NCBI GenBank assembly: GCA_046760145.1
Contig: JBHIDO010000001.1
Span: forward strand, 947-64,946
Length of the DNA stretch: 64,000 nucleotides
Source of the DNA: Candidatus Aenigmatarchaeota archaeon
Lineage (GTDB): Archaea > Aenigmatarchaeota > Aenigmatarchaeia > Aenigmatarchaeales > Aenigmatarchaeaceae
Reading direction: 5' to 3'
Positions 3,920 to 24,969 of the stretch are shown piece after piece. The translations under genes were made by a program, and so were the position numbers. Position 1 is the first letter of the stretch; every line of letters starts with the position of its first letter. Below the pieces are notes generated by a model. It ran no database searches. It saw only the letters and a list, made by a program, of their open reading frames with translations, and had not been told where the DNA came from.

Positions 3920-4379
3920 TTAATCTACCTAACATTTTTAATATCCCATCAATTATAGCTTCTGGTCTTGGTGGACAGCCTGGAACATACATGTCTACTG
4001 GTATTATTTTATCTACAGGACCAACAAAATTGTATGAATCTTTAAATGGTCCACCTGTTATTGCACAAGAACCAATTGCTATAACTTTTTTATTATCTAC
4101 CATTTGTTTATAAATAGTTTTTAATCTTTCTTTATTCTGACGATTAACAATTCCACTTGTTAACAAAATATCAGCATGTCTTGCACTTGATTTTAAAAGT
4201 ATTCCAAATCTTTCAATATCATATCTTGGAGTTAACAGAGCATATATCTCTAAAATACAACCATTACATCCTCCGACATCAAAATTACAAACCCATGGAG
4301 ATTTTTTTAATTCTTTCACAAACCAACACCAGCTATTAAAATCATTGTTGTTAAAATTGCTAAAGTTATCAATAACCAT
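3876..4379 (-). CDS. [NiFe] hydrogenase small subunit, NuoB-like (MbhJ/EchC)
   Basis: CNGCILEI ... GSCAITGGPF ... VPGCPPRPE: the four Cys of the proximal 4Fe-4S cluster of NuoB/small-subunit family. 167 aa. Confidence 0.8.
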   Translation of the reverse strand: MVIDNFSNFNNNDFNSWCWFVKELKKSPWVCNFDVGGCNGCILEIYALLTPRYDIERFGILLKSSARHADILLTSGIVNRQNKERLKTIYKQMVDNKKVIAIGSCAITGGPFKDSYNFVGPVDKIIPVDMYVPGCPPRPEAIIDGILKMLGRLNEKDKTKSKKIKRS

Positions 4380-4483
4380 TTTTTATTGAAAAAATGTCCA
4401 TATCTTTTAGGTAATATTATCTTTTCAGGATCTTTTTCCCCACCCATGTAAATATCCATTATATGCTTTTCTTCTTTTTTCAT
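4316..4483 (-). CDS. Small single-TM protein in hydrogenase operon (start assumed at internal MKKEEK; ATGA overlap with upstream gene)
   Basis: ORF with C-terminal hydrophobic helix (WLLITLAILTTMILIAGVGL). Position in operon only. Confidence 0.3.
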   Translation of the reverse strand: MKKEEKHIMDIYMGGEKDPEKIILPKRYGHFFNKKWLLITLAILTTMILIAGVGL

Positions 4484-5358
4484 TAAATCACATTGAATAA
4501 TATAAACCATTGTATTTGTGGAAATATTCCTAAAATTAAACAAAAAAATGCTAATATACCATTAATTAGCGTAACTGGTCTTGGTATAAACTTTTCTTTA
4601 CCTTCTCCAACTAATAAAACATAAACAATTTTATAATACATCACAAACAAAATCAAAGTTGCAAAAATTCCAAATATAGCTATTGCTGGAGCAAGAAAGA
4701 AGCTTGTTGTAAGGAAAATCCATTTAGGAACAAACATATTAAAAACCGGTAAACCGGCTAGAGATAAGCATGCTATAGTTACAAAAATATCATTCCATTT
4801 ATTAGTGAAGTAAGACCCTTTTAATTGATATATGTATGTTTTATTTCTTGCAAATATTCCTATTGCTAGGAATAATACTAAACCTGGAAAAATATAATTA
4901 AAAATTTGAATTGTACCAAGTATTTGTAATTCTCCAAATAATTTAGCAAGAGATAGATCTGCAATTATAAATAATATCTGTATTACTGTTGATAGTAAAA
5001 GAAATTCTTTTAATTTACTCTGAAATATAGCAAATATTGCTAATACAGAAACAAATACTAAAGAAACCAAAGTTATAAAAAAATAAAAATTGAGTTCGAA
5101 GAGAAATAAATTAAAAAAGAACCAAGAAAGTAAAATTGTTGTAAATATGTTAAAGGATATGAATTTTCCAAAACTTATCTTTTTGTAGAAGAATAAAAAG
5201 AATAAAATTAAAATTGCAATATACCAGTAAAAAATTGTTAAAATTGAAAATAAAACCAATAAAGCTAATAAAATTAAATTTTTCTTATCATAAAAGAATG
5301 AATATATTGAAATAGAAATAGTTGCTATCAAAATAAGTGTTATAAATAAAAGCATCAT
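4483..5358 (-). CDS. Polytopic membrane subunit of hydrogenase operon (short NuoL/MbhH-like?)
   Basis: 291 aa, very hydrophobic, first gene of operon. Too short for a full antiporter-type subunit; assignment by position. Confidence 0.4.
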   Translation of the reverse strand: MMLLFITLILIATISISIYSFFYDKKNLILLALLVLFSILTIFYWYIAILILFFLFFYKKISFGKFISFNIFTTILLSWFFFNLFLFELNFYFFITLVSLVFVSVLAIFAIFQSKLKEFLLLSTVIQILFIIADLSLAKLFGELQILGTIQIFNYIFPGLVLFLAIGIFARNKTYIYQLKGSYFTNKWNDIFVTIACLSLAGLPVFNMFVPKWIFLTTSFFLAPAIAIFGIFATLILFVMYYKIVYVLLVGEGKEKFIPRPVTLINGILAFFCLILGIFPQIQWFILFNVI

Positions 5359-6222: not shown

Positions 6223-7212
6223 ATGAACATAGATGAAATTATTCAAAAAATAATCGAGCACACCGGACTAAATAAAGAGGAGATTGATAAAAAGATTATC
6301 GAAAAACAAAAAGAACTATCAAACTTGGTTTCTAGAGAAGGTGCAACTTATATTATTGCAAAGGAGCTTGGTTTAGAATTATTTCCTAAGGTTAAAAGGA
6401 GATTAGAAATAAAGAACATTATCCCTAAAATAAGAAATTTGAACTTATCTGCAAGAGTTATAAGGGTTTTTGGACCTAAAGGATTTACAACAAAAGAAGG
6501 TAGAAGTGGTAAAGTTGCTAGCATAATTCTAGGAGATTCTACAGGAACAATCAGATTATCTTTATGGGATGAACAAACACATCTCGCAGAAAAAATAACA
6601 CCTGGTATGGCTATTCAGATTTTTAATGGATATACAAGAGATGATAACCTAGGAGGAGTTGAAATAAGATTAAGTAAAAGTGGTGGGATAAAAATTCTAG
6701 AATCTTCTGATCTACCATCTATAGAGAAAATATCAAAACCAACAACTCAAAGAAAGAATATAATCAATTTGAAAGAAGGTGATGAAGCTGAAGTAAGGGC
6801 TGCCTTGGTTCAATTGTTTGAAACAAGAGTTTTTTATGAAATATGTCCTCATTGTGGGAAAAGACTGATAACAACAAATAATACCTTTAAATGTAATCAA
6901 CATGGAAATGTTGACCCTTCTTATGCAATTGTTTTATCTGGAGTAATTGATGATGGTACAGAAAATATTAGGGCTGTTTTCTTTAGAACAGCGGCCTTAC
7001 AATTAATAGGAATGAATATGGAAGATGCATTAAGCAAAAAAGATAGCCTCTTAGAGGATATTGATGTTTTAGGTAAAGAATTTATTTTAACTGGAACAGT
7101 AAGAAGAAATAAAATGTTTAATAGATTAGAATTCGTGGCAAACAGTGTTAGAGAAATTGATGTTACTAACGAGGCAAACAAAATCTTAAATAGTTTAGCT
7201 TCTAATGTTTAA
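6223..7212 (+). CDS. Replication protein A / ssDNA-binding protein (OB fold + Zn ribbon)
   Basis: N-terminal MNIDEIIQKI...KEEIDKKIIEKQKELSNLVSREGATYIIAKELG typical of archaeal RPA. OB-fold segment (ARVIRVFGPKGFTTKEGRSGKVASIILGDSTGTIRLSLWDE). C4 zinc ribbon CPHCGKR...CNQHG. Confidence 0.7.
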   Translation: MNIDEIIQKIIEHTGLNKEEIDKKIIEKQKELSNLVSREGATYIIAKELGLELFPKVKRRLEIKNIIPKIRNLNLSARVIRVFGPKGFTTKEGRSGKVASIILGDSTGTIRLSLWDEQTHLAEKITPGMAIQIFNGYTRDDNLGGVEIRLSKSGGIKILESSDLPSIEKISKPTTQRKNIINLKEGDEAEVRAALVQLFETRVFYEICPHCGKRLITTNNTFKCNQHGNVDPSYAIVLSGVIDDGTENIRAVFFRTAALQLIGMNMEDALSKKDSLLEDIDVLGKEFILTGTVRRNKMFNRLEFVANSVREIDVTNEANKILNSLASNV

Positions 7213-10594: not shown

Positions 10595-11353
10595 TTACTC
10601 ACCAAAGTTAAAAAGAGAGTATTTTTCTCTTCCCTTAGTATCTTTATAAATAACTTCAATCAAGCGCGTTTTTTCTTCCATTTTAGGAATAAATTCCGAT
10701 GGAATTGGTATCCATCTTAGCTTTTTCCATTTCTTAAACTGAGCTTTTTTCTTCCTTGAAATTAACTTATTCTCACAAAAGAGACGGGTAACCCAACAAT
10801 TTCTACCTGTAACTCTATATTCCCAGCTAGAATCATTACCAGTTTTACCAATAAACCCCACCTTGAAAAAATTCTTAACTGTTTCAAGAATTTTTCTATC
10901 ATCTTGTGCAAGAGAAAACATTGGGTATTTATATTTTCCGGAACTGCATGTAAATGATCCTTCTGCTTCAATAAAACCAATTAACCAGTCAGAAAAATTA
11001 ACTTCTTTATAATTTGCTTCTCTTTTATTGAACGGTATCCGTTTTAATTGTTTCCAATTTTCAAATTGATTAGTTCTCCAGTCTAAAATCAGTCTACCTT
11101 CACAAAAATCTCGAATAGGCCAGCAGTTTCGACCACATACATTGTAAAACCATCCATGTTTTTTATCTGAATAAATAATAGAACCAACGTTGAAAAATTT
11201 CTTTAAAAACAACAAACTCATGATATCTTGTTGAAATACAACAAAGCTAGGATATTTTTTGTTATTTGAACAAAAAGAACCATCACCTTCTATGAAACCA
11301 AGTATCCAATCTGGTGAAACTTGTAAATCTTCTGATTTAAATTTCATAAACAT
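10595..11353 (-). mobile_element. Free-standing double-motif LAGLIDADG homing endonuclease
   Basis: Two LAGLIDADG motifs (ILGFIEGDGSF and LIGFIEAEGSF) about 100 aa apart. 252 aa. Own ATG, no upstream coding sequence. Same reading frame as the downstream Orc-like gene, separated by one TAA. Confidence 0.8.
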
Positions 11354-11359
11354 AATAAA

Positions 11360-11640
11360 TATTCATGTGAACATCTATTTAAGCTTTTCTCATAAATGTG
11401 TGAAGATGTGAAGAAAATGTGAAGAATTTTTGTGAAGATGTGAATTTTATATGAAGAATGTGTGAAGATGTGAAAATGTTAGACTTTATTTCATATATTC
11501 ACATGAAGATGACATGAAGGTAACGTGAAGATGTGAATATCGTTAGTGTTATAATATGAACTTCATGTGAATATGTTTCGTTTGTGATATTATTGTGTGA
11601 CTTTTATGAGAACTTCATGTGAAGTTTTCGTGAAGCAAAT
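11360..11640. repeat. Iteron array: at least 4 full copies of GTGAAGATGTGAA plus about 6 half-sites (CATGTGAA / ATGAAGA / GAACTTCATGTGAA); candidate replication-origin recognition boxes
   Basis: Direct reading gives TGTGAAGATGTGAAG at about 11398, 11431, 11461 and 11524. Also CATGAAGATGACATGAAGG and GAACTTCATGTGAA twice. Non-coding, AT-rich, upstream of an Orc-like gene. Confidence 0.6.
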
Positions 11641-11790
11641 ATGAACTTCAAAAATTCTTAAAAACCTTTCAAAACAGCTATTTTTACGGCAAAAGACGTA
11701 AAGATTTTAAAAATAATTCGTCTATTGTCTACAAATATAATATCTAATAATCTTTATAAGTATATGCTACTAGTATAGTAATAGATACCT

Positions 11791-12093
11791 ATGAAAAAAA
11801 GAAAAATCAAAAGAAACAGAGGAGTTAGAAAGGGTTTTGACCCTAAAAAACTAGCTAAAATATGGAACGTATTAGCAGAAGCAGGAGATTGGTTACATGT
11901 AGCTGATATTTCTAGAAGAACAGGTATTCACGAAGCCACAGTAAGGTGGTATCTAGATCACTATCTTCAAAAGGCTATTGATGAAGAAAGAATCGTACCT
12001 AATATTAGATTAAGACTAGTTAAATTAAAACCTGGTGTTGATCTTAAATCGTATATAAAGGCTCTAAAAATGATTGAAAAGGTTAAAACATAA
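11791..12093 (+). CDS. Small basic winged-helix/HTH DNA-binding protein (hypothetical)
   Basis: Lys/Arg-rich N-terminus followed by WNVLAEAGDWLHVADISRRTGIHEATVRWYL (HTH-like). 100 aa. Confidence 0.4.
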   Translation: MKKRKIKRNRGVRKGFDPKKLAKIWNVLAEAGDWLHVADISRRTGIHEATVRWYLDHYLQKAIDEERIVPNIRLRLVKLKPGVDLKSYIKALKMIEKVKT

Positions 12094-14493: not shown

Positions 14494-16632
14494 ATGTTTA
14501 CTAAAATTCGTAAGAGAGATGGGAGGATAGTTGATTTTCAACCAGAAAAAATTACAAATGCTATTTTTAAAGCAGCTGTTGCTGTTGGTGGTTCTGATAG
14601 AGAACTAGCAGAAAAATTGTCAAAAAAGGTTGTTGAAATAGCAGAAAGCAGATTTAAAGATAAAACACCAAATGTAGAAGATATACAAGATATTGTTGAA
14701 GAAGTTTTAATTAAATCTGGTCATGATAGAACTGCTAAAGCTTATATATTATATAGACAAGAAAGGAAAAATATCAGAGATGCTAAAGCTGTTTTCTATG
14801 GTGTAACAGATGATTTGAAATTATCATTAAACGCAATAAAAGTTTTAGAAAAAAGATATTTAATGAAAGATGAAAATGGTAAAGTGATAGAAACTCCAAA
14901 ACAATTATTTAGAAGAGTTGCAAAAGCAATTGCATCTGCAGACTTGTTATATGATCAGAATGCTGATGTTAAAAAAACTGAAAGAGATTTCTATAATATG
15001 ATGGCAAATTTAGAATTCTTGCCAAATTCTCCTACATTAATGAATGCTGGAACAGAATTAGGACAATTATCTGCTTGTTTTGTTTTGCCAGTAGGAGATT
15101 CAATGGAAGAGATATTTGAATCAATAAAACACACCGCACTAATTCATAAATCTGGTGGTGGAACAGGTTTTAGTTTTTCAAGATTAAGACCAAAAGGAGA
15201 TATAGTTAAGACAACTGGAGGAATTGCGTCTGGTCCTTTGACGTTTATGAGTGTTTTTAATTCTGCAACCGAAGCTGTTAAACAGGGTGGTAGAAGAAGG
15301 GGAGCAAACATGGGAATGTTAAGAGTTGATCATCCTGATATTCTTGATTTTATAATTGCAAAGGAAAAGGAAGGAATTTTCAATAATTTCAATTTATCGG
15401 TTGCATTAACAGAAGACTTTATGAAAGCTGTTGAAAATAATAAAGAATACAAATTAATTAACCCCAGAACAGAAGAGATTGTAAAGGAAATTAATGCAAA
15501 AACTGTTTTTGATATGATTGTTGCAATGGCTTGGAAAAACGGAGAACCGGGGATAGTGTTTCTTGATAGGATTAACAAAGATAATCCAACCCCCCATTTA
15601 GGAGAAATTGAATCAACAAACCCCTGCGGCGAACAACCATTATTACCATATGAATCCTGCAATTTGGGGTCAATTAATCTAGCAAAAATGGTTGAATATG
15701 GGGAAATTGACTGGTACAAATTAAGAGGAATTGTTCATAATGCGGTCCATTTTCTTGATAATGTTATTGACCTTAACAAATACCCCATTGACGAAATTGA
15801 GGAAATGACAAAAATTAACAGAAAGATTGGTTTGGGTGTTATGGGGTTTGCAGACATGCTAATTCAATTAGGAATTCCTTATAATTCTGATGAAGCTGTT
15901 GTATTAGCTGAAAAAATAATGCAATTTATTTATGTTGAAGCAAGGAAAAAGTCAGAAGAACTAGGAAAACAAAGAGGATCTTTCCCTGCATTTGAAAAAA
16001 GTAAATTAAACAACGGAAATTATGAAGCAATGAGAAACGCAACTGTTACAACAGTAGCACCCACCGGATCAATAAGTATAATAGCTGGTTGCTCTTCAGG
16101 AATAGAACCATTGTTTGCAATAAGTTTTGTTAGAAATGTGATGGAAGGAACAGATTTACTAGAAATAAATCCAATCTTTGAAGCATTAGCAAGAAAAGAA
16201 GGGTTTTATTCACATGAATTAATGAGAGAAATTGCAAAAGGGGGTAGTTTAAAAGATTTAGAAATACCAGAAATAATTAAAAAAGTTTTTGTAACTGCTC
16301 ATGATATTTCACCGGAATGGCATATAAAAATACAAGCAGCTTTTCAGAAATATACTGACAATGCTGTTTCTAAAACAATTAATTTCCCACAAAATGCAAC
16401 TCCAGATGACATTGCAAATGCCTATTGGTTAGCTTATCAACTTGGTTGTAAAGGATTAACGGTTTATAGAGATAAGAGTAGGGAAACACAAGTCCTTAAT
16501 ATAATGGAAGAAGAGAAAAGGAAAATAATAATTCCAGAAAAACAAAATCCTAAATCAGTAAAAATTCCTAAAAAAGTAAAAGTAAAAGCTGATTCAGATT
16601 ATTCTGGTGGTTGTAGTAATTGTAAGGTTTAG
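14494..16632 (+). CDS. nrdJ: Ribonucleoside-triphosphate/diphosphate reductase, adenosylcobalamin-dependent (class II, NrdJ) with N-terminal ATP-cone
   Basis: ATP-cone start ([24 protein letters not shown]). Catalytic [22 protein letters not shown]-terminal CSNCKV. 712 aa. Confidence 0.85.
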
Positions 16633-23449: not shown

Positions 23450-23459
23450 TTCCTCCCCT

Positions 23460-23778
23460 TCATTTCTTATCGAAGTTGAATTCGAAAAATAAAATATTTT
23501 TATTAATAAATTAATAACATTGTTATAAGAAATAAAGGTAAATAAGTTACTTATATTTCTTATGAAACCTTTAAAGGAAATAAAAGGGTGTGTTTTTTAT
23601 AAAAATAACAGTGTTATAAAAATAAATTTCTTTACATGTGAATATTTTACGAATAAAATTTAATTTTCCATGTGAAATAAAGGGGTTAACGTGAAGATAA
23701 TTATAAATATATTCATTCTTATTAAAAATCTTACTTCAAAAGAAATAAAGGTTTCCATAAGAAACTGAGGTATTAATA
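23460..23778. promoter_or_regulatory. Candidate oriC / origin-recognition-box region upstream of orc1/cdc6
   Basis: About 320 bp non-coding, very AT-rich. Contains CCATGTGAAATAAAGGGGTTAACGTGAAGATAA (23668-23700), which aligns to the archaeal ORB (ttCCAGTGGAAACgAAAGGGGT). Four GAAATAAAGG repeats (about 23531, 23578, 23674, 23743). Mini-ORB-like TACATGTGAATATTTTAC. Confidence 0.5.
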
Positions 23779-24969
23779 ATGAAAAAAATAGAAAAAATTT
23801 TTAATAAATTTCTTGATTCAAAACCCATATTTATAAATCGAGAAGCTCTTTCAATTTCATTTACACCAGAAGATATACCACATAGAGAAGCTCAAATAAA
23901 TGAGTTAGGAAGAATTCTGGCTCCGGCCTTAAAAAACGGAAAGCCTAGCAATGTATTCATATATGGAAGATGCGGAACAGGAAAAACTTTAATTTCTAAA
24001 TTGGTAGGATCAGAACTAGAAAAAATTAGTCAGTCTAATGGTCAAACCATTAAAGTTATTTATGTTAATTGTAAAATGAAAAAATCAGCTGATACAGAAT
24101 ATAGATTATTGGCTGGTTTAGCTAAGAAATTTGGAAAACAAGTTCCATTTACAGGATTGCCAACAGATCAAATTTATAATGCTTTTTTTGAAAGTTTGGA
24201 CAAAAGAAAACAAACTCTTATTTTAATTATAGATGAGATTGATGCTTTAGTTCAAAAAACAGGAGACGAAATTCTTTATAATCTAACAAGGATAAACCAA
24301 GATCTTAAAAACTCTAAATTATCTATTATAGGGATAACAAATAATCTGAGTTTTATTGAATCTTTAGATCCAAGGGTAAGAAGTTCCTTAGGTGAAGAAG
24401 AACTAATATTTCCACCTTATAATGCTTTACAATTACAAGATATTTTAAGGCAAAGATCTTCTATTGCTTTTGTATCTGGAGTTTTAGAAGAAGGAGTAAT
24501 TGAAAAATGTGCTGCTTTGGCTGCTCAGGAGCATGGAGATGCTAGAAGAGCTTTAGAATTGTTAAGGGTTGCTGGAGAACTAGCTGAGAGGAATGCAGAT
24601 GAAAAAATAACAACAGAGCATGTTGACCTAGCTCAGAAAAAAATTGATATAGATAGTGTTTTAGAAACAGTAAAAACCCAACCAAAACAAAGCCAGGCTG
24701 TTTTATATGCAATAATACAACTAGATAAAAAGAATATAGAAACAAGTGATGTAATTAATAAATATCAAGAAATTTGTAAGCAACATGGTTTAAGGGTATT
24801 AACACAAAGAAGAGTTTCAGATTTAATATCAGAACTATATTTATTTGGTATAATTGATTCAAAGATAATATCTAAGGGGAGATATGGGAGGACAAGAGTT
24901 ATAAATTTAAATTTAACTAATAATGTTAAGAAAAAACTAAAAAATCTTCTTAACCAAATATTCTTATGA
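23779..24969 (+). CDS. orc1: Orc1/Cdc6 replication initiator
   Basis: FTPEDIPHREAQINEL (Cdc6 N-terminal motif), Walker A GRCGTGKT, Walker B IIDEID, C-terminal winged helix. 396 aa. GAGGT RBS upstream. Confidence 0.9.
   Translation: MKKIEKIFNKFLDSKPIFINREALSISFTPEDIPHREAQINELGRILAPALKNGKPSNVFIYGRCGTGKTLISKLVGSELEKISQSNGQTIKVIYVNCKMKKSADTEYRLLAGLAKKFGKQVPFTGLPTDQIYNAFFESLDKRKQTLILIIDEIDALVQKTGDEILYNLTRINQDLKNSKLSIIGITNNLSFIESLDPRVRSSLGEEELIFPPYNALQLQDILRQRSSIAFVSGVLEEGVIEKCAALAAQEHGDARRALELLRVAGELAERNADEKITTEHVDLAQKKIDIDSVLETVKTQPKQSQAVLYAIIQLDKKNIETSDVINKYQEICKQHGLRVLTQRRVSDLISELYLFGIIDSKIISKGRYGRTRVINLNLTNNVKKKLKNLLNQIFL

Follow-up and report, generated by a model that had tools for sequence, protein, structure and literature searches.

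A dense array of short GTGAA boxes lies within positions 11354 to 11790 of the 64-kb stretch of DNA analysed here (the window), which belongs to a Candidatus Aenigmatarchaeota (DPANN) genome; the AAA+ and Cdc6 proteins that it encodes have exact database copies from a Candidatus Aenigmatarchaeota archaeon metagenome-assembled genome. The array is a specific, non-random cis-element. It is phased, it is conserved across the relatives examined, and it is strictly linked to the gene for a 361-aa AAA+ protein. The explanation that we prefer, and to which we give about an even chance, is that the array is an assembly and autoregulatory platform for this adjacent AAA+ protein, which would also control cdc6.

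The box array and the AAA+ gene beside it

The 13-mer GTGAAGATGTGAA occurs four times exactly in the window, always on the plus strand (11400-11412, 11432-11444, 11462-11474 and 11525-11537). Only 0.05 copies were expected by chance, and four copies were reached in none of 100 shuffles; the four full 13-mers with accompanying half-sites, reported in the first-pass annotation of this DNA, are thus real. Between 11343 and 11645 there are 18 RTGAA half-sites on the plus strand, which the sense strand of the AAA+ operon shows as TTCAY, and six on the minus strand, one of which (11343) falls in the start of a LAGLIDADG gene just beyond the array proper (11362-11645). Their density peaks at 23 sites per 300 bp, compared with a mean of 1.9 (sd 1.8) over the 64 kb, and consecutive plus-strand sites are spaced by 11 bp (eight times), 8 bp (four times) or 33 bp (twice). 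Four 10-bp dyads, TTCATGTGAA or TTCACATGAA, are found at 11362, 11498, 11562 and 11614. The first of these has an equivalent at the same position in relatives, where it is spelled TTCACGTGAA, the window's own spelling being TTCATGTGAA. The sole dyad of the window outside the array (TTCACATGAA, 16209-16218) is located inside the coding sequence of a class II ribonucleotide reductase (RNR).

The shorter word ATGTGAA is not over-represented in the window as a whole (16 found, 14.6 expected); nine of the 16 copies are inside the array and two are upstream of cdc6. As had been proposed, boxes are common to the array and the region upstream of cdc6: within the window the 12-mer TAACGTGAAGAT is limited to 11521 and 23687, and the 11-mer CATGTGAATAT to 11564, 11495 (minus strand) and 23635. 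The spacer at 11575-11612 is the window's version of a strand-specific CTCACA motif of the relatives. The GC content of the window is 25-31%, and neither Rfam (at gathering thresholds) nor ARAGORN returned an RNA family match or a tRNA in it.

Relatives of the AAA+ protein were fetched at eight genome loci and 80 metagenome loci, comprising 85 Aenigmatarchaeota-type orthologues and three distant paralogues; 72 orthologous loci (GC content 28-54%, protein identity 42-71%) have enough upstream sequence for a test of the array. All 72 carry 12-31 GTGAA/TTCAC boxes within 700 bp upstream of the AAA+ start, at a density of 17-45 per kb compared with 0-4.7 per kb elsewhere in the same loci. The first-pass annotation had tied the array to an Orc-like AAA+ gene and had proposed to look for its absence from orthologous loci; the association with the AAA+ gene held, and the array was present at every one of the 72. 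As a rule each 21-kb locus has a single cluster, ~400 bp long, whose near end falls ~5 to 60 bp short of the AAA+ ATG or, in a few loci, inside the start of the gene. The conserved neighbourhood consists of RNR, an oligonucleotide/oligosaccharide-binding (OB)-fold protein, sometimes a 100-aa helix-turn-helix (HTH) protein (HTH100), the array, the AAA+ gene, a kinase, RadA and RPA. In two deep lineages, a LigT gene abuts the AAA+ gene (L005, LigT at 4299-4886; L007, LigT at 4343-4900), and its coding sequence carries 10-12 boxes in two reading frames, typically in an aCGTGAAg context, while LigT genes that are not adjacent to AAA+ have 0-2 boxes. Upstream arrays were sought at the paralogues (24-25% identity) of Woesearchaeota (L008) and Methanosarcinales (L009), and none was found. 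In these sequences, the array is specific to the Aenigmatarchaeota orthologues of the AAA+ gene.

The grammar of the array was derived from 1429 boxes pooled from 61 distinct arrays. The box consensus is aCGTGAA[G/C/T][A/T]T, with A following GTGAA in 6% of boxes. Neighbours in the same orientation are most often spaced by 11 bp (319 cases), followed by 8 bp (76), 12 bp (49) and 10 bp (21), and there are 256 instances of the palindrome TTCACGTGAA. The boxes favour one orientation, with 948 TTCAC versus 493 GTGAA on the AAA+ sense strand. The CTCACA motif is enriched 14-fold in the arrays, with 90 copies on the AAA+ sense strand and 9 on the other strand, and clusters near -200 and -390 from the AAA+ ATG, in G-poor spacers (arrays L011-L090); it might reflect single-strand recognition or the binding of another factor. 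At the outer edge of many arrays there is a distal, near-palindromic boundary element, TTTTTGTCGATAAAAAT, and TTGTCG is enriched 11-fold. The TCGACAA core of this element resembles the dyad of the inverted left origin recognition box (ORB) of oriC (CTTCGACAAGAAA). A mini-ORB-like palindrome, TTTCCTAAGAAAA, is present near -110 in about a quarter of the arrays.

The protein encoded next to the array resembles Orc1/Cdc6 in fold alone and is MuB/ExeA-like by sequence. It matches PF13401 (AAA_22) with 56 bits (cutoff 27) and PHROG 296 'DNA transposition protein' at 2.9e-20, and its best PDB profile match is MuB (8xvb, E 2.6e-4). With TIGR03015 it scores 101 bits (E 5e-29) against a cutoff of 324 and is not an equivalog of that family. 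Cdc6_lid, Cdc6_C and the TIGR02928/PRK00411 signatures were sought in it without a match, which places it outside the Orc1/Cdc6 family, and it does not belong to WhiP either. An hhalign comparison with the genome's own Cdc6 family gave 72% probability, confined to the ATPase core. The AlphaFold2 model (pLDDT, the predicted local confidence score, 84) has the AAA+ base and lid in residues 1-252, followed by a linker that is disordered (255-273) and by the winged helix (277-350). Between beta2 (69-73) and beta3 (122-126) the model places three helices (82-90, 95-99 and 109-117), a putative counterpart of the initiator-specific motif (ISM) of Orc and DnaA, with which this placement is consistent. 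The base, lid and C-terminal winged helix of this model are those of an Orc1/Cdc6-type architecture with an initiator-clade fold, and the ATPase core superposes on MuB/TnsC/ExeA-type AAA_22 cores at 3.0-3.1 Å. On the strength of the model, the protein is an initiator-clade AAA+ protein (the fold of Cdc6/Orc1, MuB, TnsC and DnaA) of Orc-like architecture outside the Orc1/Cdc6 family. The earlier description of the adjacent gene as Orc1/Cdc6-like is therefore right for the fold and wrong for the sequence.

Many of the invariant residues of the AAA+ protein are within the winged helix. Among the best 119 non-identical relatives listed for each protein, identity is 59-72% for the AAA+ protein and 66-78% for Cdc6, which makes the former conserved about as strongly as Orc1/Cdc6. 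In the literature searched, which covered origins of Aenigmarchaeota, archaeal AAA+ proteins of the ExeA kind, COG3267 and the box sequence, we found no earlier account of what this protein family does, of the box or of Aenigmatarchaeota origins.

The cdc6 origin, the shared promoter module and the neighbouring genes

At 23.45-23.78 kb of the window, just upstream of the cdc6 gene, is the true oriC. We compared the cdc6 locus of the window with those of seven fetched relatives (L091-L097). All eight upstream regions carry 3-6 ORBs of the form TTCnnnnRGAAAt-n3-GGGG together with two TATAACAnTGTTATAA palindromes, and an inverted ORB marks the left edge in six of the eight. The lowest GC content over 50 bp is 6-10% in each of the six regions measured, even in a genome of 48% GC. 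In the window, the cumulative G-C curve has its minimum at kb 23, where cdc6 is located, and the skew is negative on both sides of the array. An origin-type skew switch was seen at one of 20 array-centred loci; at cdc6-centred loci the skew was higher to the right of cdc6 in four of four, with a sign change in three, both comparisons being short-range and confounded by gene orientation. In the eight Aenigmatarchaeota genomes the leader of cdc6 also carries an ORB directly ahead of the ATG, and the gene order around the origin is DnaG-CBS-HTH_3, oriC, Cdc6-OB protein-PolB.

It had been claimed that the array shares the core CATGTGAA with the ORBs near cdc6. For one element this does not stand. 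The window has its own spelling, TTTTCCATGTGAAATAAAGGGG, of a canonical ORB (TTCCATAGGAAATAATGGGG in L094; TTCCATAGGAAAT-n3-GGGG) at 23664-23685, and this element has A after GTGAA, as in only 6% of array boxes; given this ORB-type A, its CATGTGAA is coincidental. For two other elements the claim is correct: those at 23631-23645 and 23686-23698 are genuine GTGAA boxes whose positions are conserved across genomes. Relatives have TTCAYATGAA or a GTGAA element at the first position, and the box at the second is kept in all eight cdc6 loci.

The boxes are also placed around the two promoters in the same manner. Arrays of the AT-rich clade terminate in TTCACGTGAA-n8-aaAGCTTAAATA-n4/5-TTCACGTGAA, with the ATG 10-20 bp further on, a layout in which the presumed B recognition element (BRE) and TATA box are bracketed by boxes. 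The window counterpart of this module is 11362-11400, where the putative TATA element at 11375-11385 has boxes on both sides. At cdc6, the TATA box is bracketed by GTGAA boxes in seven of the eight genomes, in the pattern ORB-aaCGTGAAg-TATA-cTTCAC; the exception is the window, where the downstream box is degenerate. The consensus of this promoter is ORB-GGGGTT-AACGTGAAG-ATAATTATAAATA-TC-TTCAC. A strict scan of ~1.1 Mb for the box-TATA-box arrangement returned 43 matches at AAA+ promoters or arrays (reverse-strand readings included) and five at cdc6 promoters, the remaining match being one site in the LigT-embedded array of L007. The module is thus restricted to AAA+ and cdc6 promoters in the sequence scanned. 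In a wider search for a regulon, dyads or phased box pairs were found outside arrays only 28 times in 1.12 Mb, and the recurrent cases were the cdc6 promoters and, in the GC-rich clade, the region upstream of OB115. As in the window, cdc6 and the AAA+ gene are 11.5-13 kb apart on the same contig in three of the seven relatives.

OB115 encodes a membrane-anchored OB-fold protein. Immediately upstream of its start codon, loci of the GC-rich clade have two or three boxes with 11-bp spacing (L061, 1379-1402; L065, 8746-8769; L069, 8885-8900; also L068, L071, L072, L075 and L076). OB115 is a possible third target of the box-binding factor.

Table 1. Coordinates of the array, the cdc6 origin, their promoter elements and the flanking genes in the window
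Feature	Position	Strand	Remarks
GTGAA-box array	11362..11645	.	RTGAA sites counted, including four exact GTGAAGATGTGAA 13-mers
Promoter-proximal dyad TTCATGTGAA	11362..11371	.	between TATA box and start codon of the LAGLIDADG/AAA+ operon
Further dyads	11498-11507, 11562-11571, 11614-11623		basis: sequence of the array
Putative BRE/TATA AGCTTAAATAG of the minus-strand operon	11375..11385	-	~25 bp upstream of the ATG at 11353
G-poor spacer (operon sense strand) with TCACA elements	11575..11612	-	TGTGAT and TGTGAC at 11583 and 11596
Distal boundary element TTGCCGTAAAAAT	11680..11692	-	counterpart of the relatives' TTTTTGTCGATAAAAAT
AAA+ protein gene, conserved, 361 aa, C-terminal winged helix	9509..10594	-	presumed binder of the boxes
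LAGLIDADG homing endonuclease gene, free-standing, double-motif, 252 aa	10595..11353	-	Pfam LAGLIDADG_1, E 3.9e-17
HTH100 gene (100-aa HTH protein)	11791..12093	+	divergent from the array; alternative candidate binder, e.g. of the CTCACA motif
Canonical oriC	23452..23771	.	ORBs, DNA unwinding element (DUE), palindromes, GC-skew minimum
Inverted left ORB of oriC	23452-23475
AT-rich DUE of oriC	about 23479-23530
Two TATAACAnTGTTATAA palindromes of oriC	23514-23539, 23604-23619
oriC ORBs with G-strings	23568, 23664-23685, 23733, 23750-23771
GTGAA box TTTACATGTGAATAT	23631..23645	+	upstream of the promoter-proximal oriC ORB
GTGAA box TTAACGTGAAGAT	23686..23698	+	between ORB G-string and cdc6 TATA; identical to 11521-11532 of the array
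cdc6 TATA box AATTATAAATA with degenerate downstream box	23699..23718	+	TTCAT here, TTCAC in 7 relatives
orc1/cdc6 gene, bona fide	23779..24969	+	NF001625, 518 bits (cutoff 501); Cdc6_lid and Cdc6_C domains

From the array, the minus strand carries the LAGLIDADG gene, the AAA+ gene and an AAA_17 kinase-like gene. The first-pass annotation correctly saw LAGLIDADG and AAA+ open reading frames flanking the array; the AAA+ gene that it called divergent is divergent in sequence only, being co-directional with and downstream of the LAGLIDADG gene. The latter separates the boxed promoter from the start codon of the AAA+ gene, which it meets at a TAA/ATG junction, and by tblastn it was found in L001 and L002 only, both from the same organism as the window. 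Its absence from all relatives led us to reject it as a part of the array system. The endonuclease gene came in later, between the promoter and the start codon of the AAA+ gene, to which the array belongs; array and AAA+ gene remain in one operon in the window despite it. In L012 (about 7040-7145) a ~100-bp N-terminal LAGLIDADG remnant, MVFPRVDLSSIKKLDFDGWIIGFIEGEG, is present at the corresponding spot, suggesting that homing endonucleases have invaded this position and decayed there repeatedly. L092 (62-3058) encodes an anaerobic ribonucleotide reductase, NrdD, of 998 aa with a faint LAGLIDADG_3 match, which may be an intein and another homing element in this replication island.

HTH100 is fast-evolving: tblastn recovers it in about one third of the relatives, with a more divergent homologue in L026, and the gene is not always adjacent to the array. 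In L004 (4250-4515) and L006 (2270-2520), relatives at 45% identity, ~8 TCTCACAT(T) repeats lie between an HTH100-like gene and the GTGAA array.

What the array might do

Since boxes bracket the TATA boxes of both the AAA+ gene and cdc6, the AAA+ protein most probably regulates its own gene and also controls cdc6 or the activity of the origin. In mechanistic terms, the array would be a high-density, helically phased platform on which the 361-aa AAA+ protein assembles. One box, aCGTGAA[G/C/T][A/T]T, would be read by each winged helix, and the 11-bp spacing (also 8 bp, or the palindrome TTCACGTGAA) would set successive protomers on one face of the DNA. The aligned AAA+ modules might then be able to polymerise, as DnaA does on DnaA boxes or MuB and TnsC do on DNA. 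As the array overlaps the operon's own putative BRE/TATA, with boxes flanking it, its occupancy would set the level of the protein, and through the boxes around the orc1/cdc6 TATA, in the oriC 12 kb away, the protein would control cdc6 expression or origin activity. The large origin-proximal array may in addition buffer or titrate the AAA+ protein. Which protein binds the boxes, how it oligomerises, in which direction it regulates and whether the array titrates it are points that we infer. A functional precedent is Sulfolobus Orc1-2, which PMC9738581 presents as a non-initiator paralogue of Orc1 with the role of a transcription regulator.

Several observations weigh against this explanation. 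The binder is assigned by genomic linkage only; HTH100, Orc1/Cdc6 itself or an HTH_3 protein whose gene lies upstream of cdc6 are alternative candidates. The 20-30 sites far exceed what autoregulation needs, and replicators are classically laid out with an initiator-clade AAA+ gene beside its own array of sites. The GC skew was read over short distances, with gene orientation as a confounder. The arrays also hold at least two more positionally conserved motifs, CTCACA and the distal TTGTCGAT, and about a quarter of them have the mini-ORB-like dyad near -110; with such further motifs and dyads, a more complex nucleoprotein machine (an origin, a centromere or an organiser) is possible.

A bolder proposal, which we consider possible if rather unlikely, is that the initiator-clade ATPase and its array make up a previously unrecognised replication-initiation control system of DPANN archaea, or else the first archaeal AAA+-based centromere. 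As a control system, the ATPase would polymerise on the 400-bp array of 20-30 boxes, which, 12 kb from oriC, would be duplicated immediately after initiation; the array would titrate, or handcuff with, the boxes around the cdc6 TATA and ORB. Such a system would be an archaeal counterpart of datA/DnaA or of iteron incA control.

A second origin, or one half of a bipartite origin, with the adjacent AAA+ protein as its dedicated initiator in the manner of orc1/cdc6 or whiP layouts, is in our estimate quite improbable. The idea draws on the initiator-clade fold and C-terminal winged helix of the adjacent protein, on a multi-site array in 11-bp register that adjoins its gene as DnaA boxes would, and on the composite, positionally conserved architecture of the arrays, including the strand-asymmetric CTCACA and, in a subset, mini-ORB-like dyads; the neighbourhood is, moreover, rich in replication and repair genes (RPA, RadA, RNR, DnaG, PolB). 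However, the hallmarks of the origin at cdc6 do not recur at the arrays. ORBs with a G-string were found in 0 of 66 arrays, as opposed to 3-6 per cdc6 upstream region, and an ORB-dyad weight matrix is enriched in arrays 1.1-fold at a lenient threshold (2.0 vs 1.9 per kb) and 2.4-fold at a strict one, its matches concentrating at about -110 and -490 in a subset of arrays only. When a DUE was sought in the arrays of 13 relatives with 41-54% GC, the lowest 50-bp GC content was 20-32%, as against 6-10% upstream of cdc6; this is unexceptional, being matched or beaten by 5-38% of windows from the same loci. A complete canonical oriC is conserved 11.5-13 kb away; the skew, read over a short range, does not switch at the array and has its minimum at cdc6; the array can sit within a coding sequence (LigT); boxes that bracket a TATA are a transcriptional arrangement; and two origins 12 kb apart in a genome of ~0.8 Mb would seem to bring no obvious benefit. 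The proposal of the first-pass annotation that the array is a second origin or an Orc-binding array is accordingly not supported, in view of the missing G-string ORB, the missing DUE and, over a short range, the skew minimum at cdc6, and its alternative, an origin plus a partition or regulatory array, is the one that the evidence favours. The array looks like a control array that is linked to replication rather than like a second origin.

Very improbable, in our view, is an origin-proximal centromere or organiser, in which the AAA+ protein would nucleate on the boxes for segregation or for folding of the origin domain, autoregulation being a by-product. This would be analogous to parS/ParB or to R1 parC/ParR with its 11-bp repeats: the loci have a single large cluster, always ~12 kb from oriC, whose 11-bp phased repeats overlap the promoter of the binding-protein gene and whose number of sites is well above regulatory needs. 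The palindrome TTCACGTGAA is, in addition, the core of the bacterial parS described in the ParB/parS papers. The full 16-bp parS palindrome, tGTTNCACGTGAAACa, was not found, however; relatives match its 10-bp core TTCACGTGAA, and the dyad of the window is TTCATGTGAA. Since parS has A after GTGAA, which is the case in 6% of array boxes, the identity with the parS core (in arrays such as L014 and L026) is probably a coincidence. No ParA/SegA-like partner motor gene, and no ParA or ParB domain, was seen in the conserved neighbourhood, the region that was annotated, and there is no evidence of spreading. The extra boxes placed precisely around the cdc6 TATA point to gene control instead.

It seems to us very unlikely, too, that the boxes are read by another protein (HTH100, the HTH_3 protein encoded upstream of cdc6, or Orc1/Cdc6 recognising mini-ORB variants) and that the AAA+ gene is no more than the target that they regulate. 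HTH100 is the divergent neighbour in the window and the closest clade, yet the box is invariant in the sampled relatives while HTH100 diverges beyond detection by tblastn and does not adjoin the array in the GC-rich clade or in L005 and L007. The HTH_3 gene is a conserved neighbour of oriC, whereas the arrays follow the AAA+ start codon and not other genes. As for Orc1/Cdc6, the dyad of the ORB, TTCCnnnGGAA, has a superficial likeness to TTCACGTGAA, and an ORB contains CAyGTGAAAT in the window and in L096; ORBs are nevertheless set apart from boxes by position +5 and by their G-string, and at the lenient threshold arrays show no enrichment of the ORB matrix. A defence system (PADLOC gave weak partial P-loop matches only, and the gene occurs once, among conserved replication and repair genes) and a mobile element or integrated plasmid (the synteny RNR-OB115-(HTH100)-array-AAA+-kinase-RadA-RPA is kept in >70 loci) were both rejected.

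The control of replication initiation in archaea is poorly understood, and in DPANN archaea, with their very small genomes and mostly uncultured members, it is essentially unknown. The present analysis yields: a candidate regulator that is conserved about as well as Orc1/Cdc6; a cis-code in 11-bp register, aCGTGAA[G/C/T][A/T]T; a link to oriC and the promoter of cdc6 that is direct and can be tested; and a defined anatomy of oriC for the Aenigmatarchaeota sampled. With the box sequence, the spacing rules and two target promoters at hand, tests can be carried out in vitro with recombinant protein and need no culturing.

Comparison with known systems

The MuB/TnsC/ExeA group of AAA_22 ATPases is the closest to the AAA+ protein by sequence, and the cores superpose. 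MuB and TnsC polymerise on DNA. The protein described here differs from them in having no transposon context, in the predicted addition of a sequence-specific winged helix, and in being single-copy in a conserved chromosomal neighbourhood.

With archaeal origins (ORBs or mini-ORBs bound by Orc1/Cdc6), the system has in common a repeat array beside the gene of an AAA+ winged-helix protein, and dyad-type elements. In contrast, the arrays have no G-string ORBs or DUE, the protein lacks Cdc6_lid and Cdc6_C, and the real oriC is 12 kb away.

In plasmid control loci such as the P1 incC/incA iterons and R1 parC/ParR (11-bp repeats), direct repeats lie by the gene of their binder, over its promoter, and mediate autoregulation, and a second, smaller set of sites at the origin is the layout of titration or handcuffing. 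The many direct repeats, the overlap with the own promoter and the smaller set of the same sites at the origin are all found here, and repeats of one motif beside the gene of a DNA-binding protein, the two conserved together, are an iteron-type arrangement. Here, however, the array is chromosomal and conserved across the Aenigmatarchaeota loci examined; its core is 5 bp (~10 bp extended) compared with 17-22 bp for iterons, and the presumed binder is an AAA+ protein, not a Rep or ribbon-helix-helix protein.

Sulfolobus Orc1-2 is described in PMC9738581 as a global regulator of the DNA-damage response. An AAA+/ISM/winged-helix transcription factor that acts on a short promoter motif and coexists with true initiators, it resembles the AAA+ protein in the latter's predicted architecture and proposed role. 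It is, unlike the AAA+ protein, a bona fide Orc1/Cdc6 member; no array of 20-30 sites is described for it, and the targets here would be the protein's own gene and cdc6.

A further parallel is DnaA. What is shared is an initiator-clade AAA+ protein with a C-terminal DNA-binding domain, a cluster of sites over its own promoter, many short asymmetric boxes, many of them in 11-bp register and in both orientations, and extra sites at or near the origin. Clusters of DnaA boxes make up the arrays of the dnaA promoter and oriC and the titration locus datA. The present system differs in being archaeal, in having a winged helix instead of the domain IV HTH and an unrelated box, in an array without a DUE, and in the presence of a separate Orc1/Cdc6 with its canonical oriC. 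The principle of an initiator-clade AAA+ protein with an array of sites at its own gene is already known; what is new is the family of the protein, the code of the boxes, their conservation in the Aenigmatarchaeota loci that were examined, and their link with the promoter of cdc6. If the AAA+ protein binds the boxes as we propose, it would represent, beside DnaA and Orc1/Cdc6, a third lineage of initiator-clade AAA+ proteins with a C-terminal DNA reader on arrays of sites.

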